Source: Dictyostelium discoideum (Eukaryota). From it: 64,000 bases of DNA. The translations under genes were made by a program, and so were the position numbers. Positions 18,934-21,197 of this stretch are shown in pieces; the first letter of the stretch is position 1, and each line of letters opens with the position of its first letter. Under the pieces are notes generated by a model. It saw nothing but the letters and a program-made list of their open reading frames with translations, did not search any database and was not told where the DNA came from. The stretch is taken from NCBI GenBank assembly GCA_000004695.1, contig CM000153.2, positions 1,472,001-1,536,000 of the forward strand. The letters run 5' to 3'.

Positions 18934-19262
18934 GAAACACAACAATTTTTGTGAGATTTCATTTTTTGTGGATTATATATTCTGTGGAAAAAAAAAAAAA
19001 AAAAAATAAGGAAATATTTTTTTTTTTTTTTTTTTAATTTTTTTTTATTTATTTTTTTTTTTTATTTATTTTTTTTTTATTTCTATTTTTAATTTTTTTT
19101 TTATTTTTTATTTTTTTTCCACAAATAGTGTTTGGTCATGTGAAAAAAAAAAAAAAAAAAGAATTATTGATTTTTGAATTTCTCTATACATTAAATATTA
19201 TTGAGTGATACTTGGAATAATAAATTGATTATCCTTTACATTAATAATATGTGAATTTATAA
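18934..19262. repeat. Direct repeat copy 1 (about 330 bp); pairs with copy at 20840..21197
   Basis: It starts gaaacacaacaatttttgtgagatttcattttttgtg and ends ..gaatttctctatacattaaatattattgagtgatacttggaataataaattgattatcctttacattaataatatgtgaatttataa. The second copy is near-identical apart from its internal poly-A/T region. Confidence 0.8.
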
Positions 19263-19644
19263 AAAAAAAAATAAAGGAAAAAGAAATATTAGTTTAAAAT
19301 TTTAATCAATCATATAATCTTATCATTTTTTATTTATCTTTATCCTATTAAAAGAATTTTTTTCATGGTGAATATTAGAACTAATTAATAAAAATAAATA
19401 TATAAAAAAAAAACTAAAAAAAAAAAAAAATAGAAAGAAAAAAAAAACTAAAAATAAAAAAAAAATTTTTAAACAAAAGAATCTTTTTTTTTTTTTTTTT
19501 TTTTCAAAAAAAGTTTCCAGTTTATTATGTTCTCATTTTGAATTTGAATCTAGAACTATATATTAAAACACATTTTCAATCAACATAAATTTGTTATTGC
19601 TGATGTTAATCAAATTACAAATTTAGTTGGTTATTTAGAACCAA

Positions 19645-19890
19645 TTGGAAAAAGCAATTGTTGTTGTTGTTGTTGTTGTTGTTGTTGTTGTTGTTGTTGT
19701 TGTTGTTGTTGTTGTTGTTGTTGTTGTTGTTGTTGGTAAACCACTAACAGAATTTACAACAACAGTTGTTCAAACTCAAACTTCAAAATCTGAACCTGTT
19801 ACAAACTATTATTTACTTTGTGACATTTGGTACCACAAGATCAAGATTTTAGAAGAAAATTACAAACTGGTAAGTTTCTTTTTTTTTTAA
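19645..19890 (+). other. ORF of doubtful coding value that overlaps a (GTT)23 microsatellite and ends at a GTAAGT donor-like site; possible upstream fragment of the degenerate element
   Basis: The listed ORF reads MEKAI(V)26GKPLTEFTTTVVQTQTSKSEPVTNYYLLCDIWYHKIKILEENYKL, followed by gtaagt. No phase-compatible acceptor links it to the ORF at 20174. Confidence 0.2.
19659..19736. repeat. (GTT)n microsatellite; a second (GTT)n lies at 18278..18338
   Basis: This is read directly from the sequence. Confidence 0.95.
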
Positions 19891-19940
19891 TAAAGATTTT
19901 GAATACTAAGAATCTTGAAGTTTTAAATAATGATAATGAT

Positions 19941-20039
19941 AATAATAATAATAATAATTAATAATAATAATAATAATAATAATAATAATAATAATAATAA
20001 TAATAATAATAATAATAATAATAATAATAATAATAATAA
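19941..20039. repeat. (TAA)n microsatellite of about 33 units
   Basis: This is read directly from the sequence. Confidence 0.95.
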
Positions 20040-20173
20040 AAATAATAATAATAAAAATAATACTAATCTATAAATAATAAATAAAAAAAATACTAATTTA
20101 TTATAAAAATTTTCTTTTTTTTTTTTTTTTTATAAATTAAATTGGTGATACATCTAATGAAATTTATGAAAGT

Positions 20174-20566
20174 TTGAAGAATCAATTAAAATATAGATAT
20201 GCGGATGGTAATATAAAAAAAGATTATTTAAATTTTATTTATTCAAGAGATTATTGTTATCAAGATTTGATTAGAGATAAAAAATCAAATGCTTCAGAAA
20301 AACAATTCAAAAGGAATTTAATTGATTTTTTACATAGAAATCACAACGAAGAGATTCAAATCTTGAAATCAAAAATCAATAAAATCAATGATAAAGATAT
20401 CAAATCGTTCTTTCAATTTGTTATAGTTTATTTTGGTTCTGCTCATTTTTCACATAGCTCTGGAGGTTGTCAAACTGGTTATGGGACAAAAAGAATCATT
20501 AAAATTTGGGAAGATTTAGGTTGTAGAGTTATATTGGTAGATGAAGTTTATACTTCACAGGTATGA
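20174..20566 (+). pseudogene. TnpB/Fanzor-like (OrfB_IS605-type) fragment covering the RuvC-II region through the conserved YTSQ motif; degenerate
   Basis: ..FVIVYFGSAHFSHSSGGCQTGYGTKRIIKIWEDLGCRVILVDEVYTSQV* aligns by eye with ISDra2 TnpB IIGTEHL...[38 protein letters not shown]. The positions S-x-S-x-G-x3-(F/Y)-x3-(I/L)-x-(I/Y)-K, G-x-(V/I), V-D/S-x-x-(Y/F)-(T/P)-S-Q are conserved. The catalytic Glu position reads Ala and about 14 residues are missing. The ORF starts with TTG, has no in-frame Met, has an in-frame stop just upstream, and shows no RuvC-I motif. After TSQV the sequence decays into AT-rich repeat. Confidence 0.45.
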
Positions 20567-20649
20567 ATAATTATATATATATTTAATAATATAAAAATGA
20601 AAATAATAATAATAATAAATAATAATAATAATAAATAATAATAAATAAT

Positions 20650-20828
20650 AATTTTTAATGGTAAAGTTGAGTTGTTCCCTTTATGTATATGTTAAATGCA
20701 CCAACATTATCACGATTTTTAATTCCATGAATTTTGCAACGTTTTAATTTGTAACATTTATTGAAACACTCGAGTTTTTCATTTGGTCCAACGGGACATT
20801 TTACACCTTTTACTTGCGAAAAATATTT
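20650..20828 (-). pseudogene. TnpB/Fanzor-like C-terminal fragment (zinc-ribbon remnant plus RuvC-III motif), convergent with the plus-strand fragment
   Basis: The minus-strand reading is (K)YFSQVKGVKCPVGPNEKLECFNKCYKLKRCKIHGIKNRDNVGAFNIYIKGTTQLYH*. The string NRDNVGAFNI matches the TnpB RuvC-III consensus h-D-R-D-x-N-A-A-x-N-I. The C..C..C..C arrangement is a degenerate zinc ribbon. The N-terminal YFSQV overlaps the C-terminal YTSQV of the plus-strand fragment at the protein level but with different codons, so these are two diverged partial copies. It abuts direct-repeat copy 2. Confidence 0.45.
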
Positions 20829-20839
20829 TTAGTTTTATT

Positions 20840-21197
20840 GAAACACAACAATTTTTGTGAGATTTCATTTTTTGTGTAAAAGAATTTGATTATATACTCC
20901 GTGAAAAAAAAAAAAATAAAAAAAAATAAAAAATAAAAAAAATAAAAAAATAAAGAAAAGAAGGAAGTCAAATAAGGATATTTTTTTTTTTTTTTTTTTA
21001 ATTTTTTTTTTATTTATTTTTTTTTTTATTTCTATTTTTAATTTTTTTTTTTTTTTTTAATGTTTAATTTCATATGAAAAAAAAAAAAAAAAAAAGAATT
21101 ATTGATTTTTGAATTTCTCTATACATTAAATATTATTGAGTGATACTTGGAATAATAAATTGATTATCCTTTACATTAATAATATGTGAATTTATAA
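20840..21197. repeat. Direct repeat copy 2 (about 358 bp)
   Basis: See copy 1. It has the same orientation and sits 1.9 kb downstream of copy 1. Confidence 0.8.

Follow-up and report, generated by a model that had tools for sequence, protein, structure and literature searches.

The stretch analyzed here (the window) comprises 64,000 nucleotides of the genome of Dictyostelium discoideum AX4 (contig CM000153.2, positions 1,472,001 to 1,536,000). Between a gene for a Cu-transporting P-type ATPase and a RapGAP gene, it contains two direct repeats that bracket the remains of a TnpB/Fanzor-like gene. We consider it probable, though well short of certain, that these repeats are a native intergenic segment duplicated by a relic-bearing insertion of ~1.58 kb, i.e., an unusually long (~330-360 bp) target-site duplication (TSD), and that the inserted DNA is a non-autonomous mobile segment of the Fanzor type. 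Comparison with related genomes identifies two independent, lineage-private insertions of homologous relic DNA, one in the window and the other at a U1 small nuclear RNA (snRNA) locus of D. cf. discoideum, each accompanied by a local duplication of 330-430 bp. We infer that the relic-bearing segment is now, or recently was, a non-autonomous mobile element.

The repeat unit and its empty orthologous sites

The two repeats lie in the same orientation at 18934-19262 (copy A, 329 bp) and 20840-21197 (copy B, 358 bp), with starts 1906 bp and ends 1935 bp apart, confirming the positions, direct orientation, and ~1.9-kb spacing given in the original prediction. Its description of the copies as near-identical is accurate for their ends, where blocks of 37 nt (18934-18970 = 20840-20876) and 120 nt (19143-19262 = 21078-21197) match exactly, but not for their centers, which are rich in poly(A) and poly(T) and differ by indels. 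A pairwise global alignment of the copies contains 292 matches, 7 mismatches, and 89 gap columns, corresponding to 97.7% identity without gaps and 75% with gaps. Two stretches of copy B, of 11 nt and ~45 nt, are missing from copy A, which also has a divergent patch of ~20 nt (19119-19142); alignment with the ancestral unit described below places these same changes in copy A. The repeat is far beyond chance: when the window, which has a G+C content of 22.9%, was simulated ten times with a second-order Markov model, the longest complex exact repeats were 18-20 nt, as compared with the 120 nt observed. No third copy of the unit is present within the window.

Orthologous loci were found via the RapGAP protein cluster and compared by blastn and MAFFT. 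All five related genomes have one unit and no relic in the spacer between RapGAP and the ATPase, which measures 1.22 kb in D. cf. discoideum (L002), 1.27 and 1.26 kb in two D. discoideum isolates (L003 and L005, respectively), 1.12 kb in D. firmibasis (L004), and 1.11 kb in D. citrinum (L015), as opposed to 3.15 kb in the window. Since the unit is single and relic-free at the orthologous site, the repeats represent the duplicated target of an insertion and not a part of the inserted element. Copy A is collinear with, and joined to, the ancestral left flank; the T-run directly upstream of it (18928-18933) corresponds to T15-20 at the empty sites, and the left duplication boundary falls inside this run. 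Copy B is near-collinear with the single ancestral unit and its right flank, being joined to the RapGAP 3' end through a native T-run that lies between the unit and the RapGAP stop codon (21198-21266) and is likewise found at the empty sites. Copies A and B share a substitution private to AX4 (GAATT[T]AT, with G in the other genomes), and the empty alleles are B-type at all markers separating A from B.

In the window, as in the second insertion discussed later (L012), the copies are direct, flank the insert immediately, and are each joined to one native flank. By this defining comparison of sequences the repeats are a TSD, with the exception of their length. The duplication boundaries lie in A/T runs and are exact only to within a few bases. 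The TSDs made by known transposases are short (2-20 bp), whereas the duplications measure ~330-360 bp in the window and at least 355 bp at the second locus (L001). The earlier conclusion that the segment is accessory DNA is supported, since only the AX4 lineage, among the genomes compared, has the insertion. It had also been proposed that a unit that is single-copy elsewhere and has no short TSD outside it would favor a local duplication over a mobile element. Taken literally, this is what we observe, but the unit is itself the TSD, and the missing outer short TSD therefore does not rule against a mobile insertion, with which the locus remains compatible.

The relic gene, its family, and the second insertion

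The 1.58-kb insertion occupies 19263-20839 on the plus strand, and no terminal inverted repeats (TIRs) were found in it. It begins with an A/T-rich 5' leader (19263-19562) that starts with A9 and in which blast detected no homology to the leader at L001 (9607-9985) or to any of 15 fetched loci. The decayed N-proximal part of the relic follows on the plus strand (19563-19869), its translation containing HKFVIADVNQITNLVGYLEPIGK, a possible RuvC-I remnant, and then ..GKPLTEF..EENYKL. The main relic open reading frame (ORF; 20141-20562, plus strand) ends in ..FVIVYFGSAHF..GCRVILVDEVYTSQ (..VDEVYTSQ), and a C-terminal piece, KYFSQVKGVKCPVGPNEKLECFNKCYKLKRCKIHGIKNRDNVGAFNIYIKGTTQLYH followed by a stop, lies inverted on the minus strand (20655-20828) and carries zinc-finger and RuvC-III “NRD” motifs in the six-frame translation. 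The degenerate TnpB-like pieces reported earlier between the repeats are thus present, and there is no gag or pol, also in agreement with the earlier description. Read in order, the plus-strand ORF pieces are HKFVIADVNQ..., ...EENYKL, and IGDTSNEIY...GCRVILVDEVYTSQ, and they are interrupted by two microsatellites: a (TTG)26 array inside the N-proximal part (19658-19735) and an (AAT) array of ~56 imperfect units (19926-20097), which gene models treat as an intron. Both microsatellites had been recognized previously, although their sizes, given as (GTT)23 and (TAA)33, needed correction.

At the right junction of the window insert, the terminal 180 bp of the relic are inverted beside the palindromic AAAAATATTTTT, and ~53 bp of the D. 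cf. discoideum relic copy are missing; in that copy, the C-terminal piece follows the rest of the relic collinearly and is not inverted. A processed retrocopy, with twin priming to produce the inverted end, was considered and rejected because poly(A) is missing at the right junction, the only A-run being that at the 5' (left) junction on the plus strand. The window relic has lost its N-terminal half and retains ~270 codons, broken up by the microsatellites and inverted at the end, while the L001 relic has a frameshift, a Cys-to-Tyr replacement, and NHD in place of NRD. Judged from these sequences, the relic gene is dead in both genomes. Both right-hand junctions (window 20823-20842, L001 10828-10848) have TATTTTTAG(G)TT..TATTG just ahead of the duplicated unit. 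This stretch is ancestral target DNA in L001 but not in the window, and the likeness is too short and A/T-rich for interpretation (local alignment score of 20 vs. a null 95th percentile of 22).

In its aligned part, the main ORF of the region has 99% identity to the hypothetical protein DDB_G0284143 of D. discoideum AX4 (P0001), of which it makes up most. The annotated protein starts with MLLCQ, which is the end of an unrelated ORF at 18117-18377 (peptide at 18363-18377), and the model then splices ~1.8 kb over copy A and half of the relic to reach YADGNIKK... (window 20201-20566). The DDB_G0284143 gene model therefore looks like an artefact on a pseudogene.

TnpB and Fanzor proteins share a C-terminal signature, [TS][TS]-x-x-zinc finger-x(5,50)-RD (Bao and Jurka, 2013; PMC3627910). 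It is present in the window relic as ..VDEVYTSQ / YFSQVKGVKC..C..C..CKIHGIKNRD, only when the plus-strand ORF and the inverted minus-strand piece are combined. HMMER searches of 1.84 billion representative proteins retrieved three family members in total, all from the D. discoideum complex, and two metagenome scans with 27-30-mers of the relic gave 0 matches. All three members match PF07282 (Cas12f1-like TNB / OrfB zinc ribbon), with the distant relative P0250 scoring above the gathering cutoff of 26.3 bits (29.1 bits) and the window copy below it (20.7 bits). A profile of the three-sequence family matches Cas12f/OrfB chains in PDB (E~0.009) across the hallmark motifs; a single-sequence phmmer search of PDB with the window relic returned no match. 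No intact ORF of full length, with WED/REC at the N-terminus and all of the RuvC triad, was found, and an AlphaFold2 model of P0250 built from a three-row alignment had a predicted local distance difference test (pLDDT) score of 35, was unusable, and was not taken to a fold search. Overall, the relic appears to be a decayed TnpB/Fanzor-like gene, an assignment that is moderately supported. Amoebozoa are known to have Fanzors, which are associated with many transposon types (PMC10530073), and no description of a TnpB/Fanzor relic in D. discoideum was found in the literature searched.

The only close homolog of the relic (P0002) is in D. cf. discoideum (GCA_054859205.1), at a locus (L001 = L012) that lies between RagA and a 545-aa gene and is non-syntenic with the window. 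The two relics share ~90% nucleotide identity over ~750 bp. The L001 relic is likewise flanked by direct repeats (rep1 and rep2, at least 355 bp), the sequence of which is unrelated to the window unit, and each repeat holds a complete U1 snRNA gene (Rfam RF00003, 81.6 and 85.9 bits, respectively) together with ~170 bp upstream. The L012 spacer is 2325 bp long, as compared with 710-851 bp in six other assemblies, each of which is relic-free and has exactly one U1. The Fanzor-coding 3' part is common to both inserts and the 5' leaders are unrelated. Outside the relic, sensitive blastn between the two inserts gave low-complexity noise only, and no TIRs or termini shared between them rose above shuffled controls.

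Through the insertion at the U1 locus, D. cf. discoideum gained a second U1 snRNA gene. The two U1 copies are at L001 9413-9574 and 11033-11194 (= L012 6522-6683 and 8142-8303), and the left copy, with the lower of the two Rfam scores, has three substitutions in the U1 body. The 5' end of U1 at this locus is ATACTTACCAG in D. discoideum isolates, as opposed to the canonical ATACTTACCTG in D. cf. discoideum. The L001 leader also contains a ~107-nt imperfect palindrome (9696-9803) with a G+C-rich core (CTCACCCAC...GTGGTGAG), which has a DNA fold z-score of -3.2, is equaled in folding by 0/200 shuffles, and has no counterpart in the window insert. From its sequence, it looks like a hairpin or a miniature inverted-repeat transposable element.

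The third family member, P0250 (L013), has 31% amino acid identity to the window copy. Its relic lies in ~1.6 kb (L013 7746-9336) for which the orthologous flanks in a D. discoideum isolate (L014) have no counterpart, at a synteny breakpoint where the left flank corresponds to L014 8001-5171 and the right flank to L014 14664-16866 in inverted orientation. No long flanking repeat was found at L013.

Copies A and B group together, and rep1 and rep2 are mutually closest, being 2.8% apart vs. 3.1-5.6% from the other genomes. As each pair groups together and yet carries private changes, the insertions took place after the compared genomes had diverged, but not very recently. In both events it is the left copy that has been altered; at the U1 locus, rep1 has 8 private changes, while rep2, beside the 3' end of the downstream gene, is ancestral-like with 1. 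The faster decay of the left copies is most simply explained by relaxed constraint on a copy detached from its neighbor gene (window) or on a redundant U1 (L001). The two relic copies are ~10% apart, about the orthologous divergence of the two genomes, and both probably go back to a single ancestral copy, which was later relocated or copied within each lineage.

Mechanism, rival explanations, and related elements

Under the reading that we favor, the segment would have entered the RapGAP/Cu-ATPase spacer in the lineage that led to AX4. The incoming DNA may have been joined to the two target strands at A/T homopolymer runs separated by several hundred bp, and gap-filling or re-replication would then have copied the intervening host DNA to both sides. 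An element with a conserved Fanzor-coding 3' end and a variable other end would follow the one-ended or fuzzy-ended Fanzor1 pattern, and after insertion the copy attached to the 3' end of the neighbor gene (copy B, rep2) would be conserved while the other decayed. Among the origins suggested in the original prediction, a segmental duplication that captured a transposon relic comes closest, in that the duplication is tied to the relic; the order of events, however, seems rather to have been one insertion that duplicated its target, an architecture that recurs independently at the U1 locus. The anatomy of the insertion is solidly established, whereas the mechanism is inferred by analogy, from two events and one precedent in the literature. 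A bolder proposal, which we put forward tentatively and hold to be doubtful, is that the D. discoideum complex harbors an undescribed and still-mobile Fanzor-derived element that routinely breaks its target ~330-430 bp apart, so that the long TSD would be the rule of its mechanism.

The closest precedent, by analogy, is offered by the CRe-1/2/3 elements of Chlamydomonas reinhardtii, which are Fanzor1-carrying non-autonomous Helitron2 elements with extra 5' sequences and variable TSDs, including long ones of 44, 50, 93, 242, and 443 bp, the 5' TSD following TTTT (Bao and Jurka, 2013; PMC3627910). The Dictyostelium insertions resemble them in having a TnpB-like (Fanzor) gene within a non-autonomous insertion, a very long TSD, and a variable 5' side next to a conserved Fanzor-coding 3' part. 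Copy A starts directly after TTTTTT, and the 5' boundary at L001 is in an A-rich tract and not placeable. By contrast, the long TSDs of CRe elements are exceptions among TSDs of 7-19 bp, whereas both Dictyostelium events are in the range of 330-430 bp, and CRe families are multi-copy, as opposed to one annotated copy per genome here. The CRe elements also have a defined 3' end hairpin, asymmetric terminal inverted repeats (ATIRs), and Helitron relatives; no shared terminus, hairpin, or Rep/Hel partner was found for the insert, although whole genomes were not searched, and the folds of the insert ends are unremarkable except for the 107-nt palindrome in the L001 leader.

Similar comparisons can be made with two other groups of Fanzor1 elements. 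The MCi-2 elements of Mucor circinelloides, which belong to an unclassified superfamily, have variable 5' and conserved 3' regions and no TIRs (PMC3627910). The Dictyostelium inserts share with them the differing 5' regions with “fuzzy” 5' ends, the common Fanzor-coding 3' part, and the lack of TIRs, but MCi-2 elements are 7-9 kb long, have intact Fanzor genes, and make TSDs of 11-12 bp with a sequence pattern. The Sola2-Fanzor1 chimeras of other dictyostelids (DFa-1/2/3 and PPa-1/4/5) carry TIRs of 12-21 bp, AT-rich TSDs of 4 bp, and a Sola2 transposase (PMC3627910). They, too, place Fanzor-type genes in dictyostelid genomes, but their TIRs, short TSDs, and Sola2 transposase are not seen in the insert. 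With no shared termini, hairpins, or transposase found at the loci compared, the insert is not assignable to Helitron2, Sola2, or any TIR family; by analogy, it behaves most like the one-ended or fuzzy-ended Fanzor1 elements.

Several observations weigh against a mobile element. The end tests against shuffled controls gave the two inserts no conserved termini or TIRs in common, and at the end of the window insert an internal piece of the relic is inverted, an arrangement that resembles a junction formed by repair or rearrangement. In both genomes the relic is dead, and no autonomous partner was found, although whole Dictyostelium genomes were not searched by DNA; under the same limit, protein searches gave only one annotated copy per genome. 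Moreover, the long-TSD events number only two, with boundaries in homopolymer runs that cannot be placed to the base.

The main rival is capture of the relic during host break repair, which we regard as unlikely but deserving of serious consideration. Repair of widely spaced nicks or staggered breaks can yield a tandem duplication with filler DNA and is sequence-agnostic. In this case, a staggered or resected break in a spacer rich in A/T runs would have been mended with an ectopic fragment, copied or ligated into place (filler DNA, template switching, or a process like microhomology-mediated break-induced replication), giving a tandem duplication in which the relic is a passive passenger. The absence of shared termini and TIRs, the inverted end with its adjoining palindrome and missing bases, the breakpoints within homopolymer runs, and the altered left copy in both events speak for this reading, and the window locus does resemble filler-DNA duplications in its direct duplication between two breakpoints with foreign DNA at a rearranged junction. 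What such repair leaves unexplained is why a homologous relic should be the insert in two independent private events of the same architecture, and why a third family member should also reside in lineage-specific DNA, while the asymmetric decay follows more simply from relaxed constraint on the detached copy. Thus, break repair accounts for the messy junctions but not for the recurrence of the relic.

It is improbable that the filled state is ancient and that the empty alleles arose by repeated recombination between the repeats, in the way solo long terminal repeats (LTRs) form, with gene conversion keeping the repeats alike. Direct repeats of 350 bp would permit precise deletion and could leave a clean-looking empty site, but independent losses would be needed in five of six genomes at the window locus and in six of seven at the U1 locus. 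Recombinants between A and B should be chimeric, and the uniformly B-type empty alleles argue against such an origin, as do the AX4-private substitution common to A and B and the closer similarity of rep1 and rep2 to each other than to other genomes. Still less credible is a two-step history in which a tandem duplication of the unit came first and a TnpB-bearing element then landed precisely at its junction; the end product would be the same, but the scheme has no specific support, a duplication without the relic occurs in none of the genomes examined, and the coincidence would be required twice, at two unrelated loci with unrelated units.

LTRs belong to their element and are absent from empty sites, enclose gag/pol, and have a 4-6-bp TSD outside them; although the direct orientation and the length of a few hundred bp around an internal region are typical of an LTR retrotransposon or solo-LTR pair, the proposals that the repeats are such a pair or the termini of a non-autonomous element are refuted, as the unit is host sequence that five genomes have singly, with nothing TnpB-like, at their orthologous site, the relic at its second insertion is bordered by a wholly different sequence (the U1 gene), and neither gag/pol nor a short TSD outside the repeats is present.

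Flanking sequences and implications of the insertion

The Cu-ATPase gene upstream of the insertion (exons 14936-18134) and the RapGAP gene downstream are both on the minus strand, the latter with an ORF end coordinate of 21285, 88 bp past copy B across the native T-run. The 3' ~105-125 nt of the repeat unit (19143-19262 / 21078-21197) are unusually conserved for an A/T-rich spacer. Identity in this 3' part is 97-98% for D. cf. discoideum and for two D. discoideum isolates, 92% for D. citrinum, and ~85% for D. firmibasis. On the minus strand, the part follows the RapGAP stop at a distance of 88-210 nt and has a T-run at its end. It is possible that this conserved part is a 3'-untranslated region or terminator element, or an unannotated small RNA, for which there is no Rfam match. 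Searches of the unit against Rfam with permissive E-values gave chance-level matches only, the features of Class I RNAs (the Dictyostelium upstream sequence element (DUSE) with CCC, the TGTG box, and the 11-nt motif; PMC7919456) had no convincing match in it, and ARAGORN found no tRNA in the window or L001. Elsewhere in the window, the Cu-ATPase gene contains a 66-nt direct repeat with 95% identity (17610-17675 / 17967-18032), which corresponds to two tandem heavy-metal-associated (GMTCSSCV) domains.

Overall, AX4, the reference strain, has an insertion that is private to its lineage and missing from several relatives, and the hypothetical gene DDB_G0284143 can be identified as a probable decayed TnpB/Fanzor relic. 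If the long duplication is intrinsic to the element, a mobile element would thereby have a rare means of copying host genes and regulatory DNA in a single step, as in the case of the second U1 gene of D. cf. discoideum. Each insertion could then duplicate whole small genes and their regulatory regions, for example a U1 snRNA gene and its promoter. The D. discoideum complex would also represent a second, independent lineage for an odd long-TSD behavior that has been reported once, in the Fanzor-carrying elements of Chlamydomonas. The insertion is polymorphic for presence and absence among culturable isolates, which makes these possibilities experimentally approachable.

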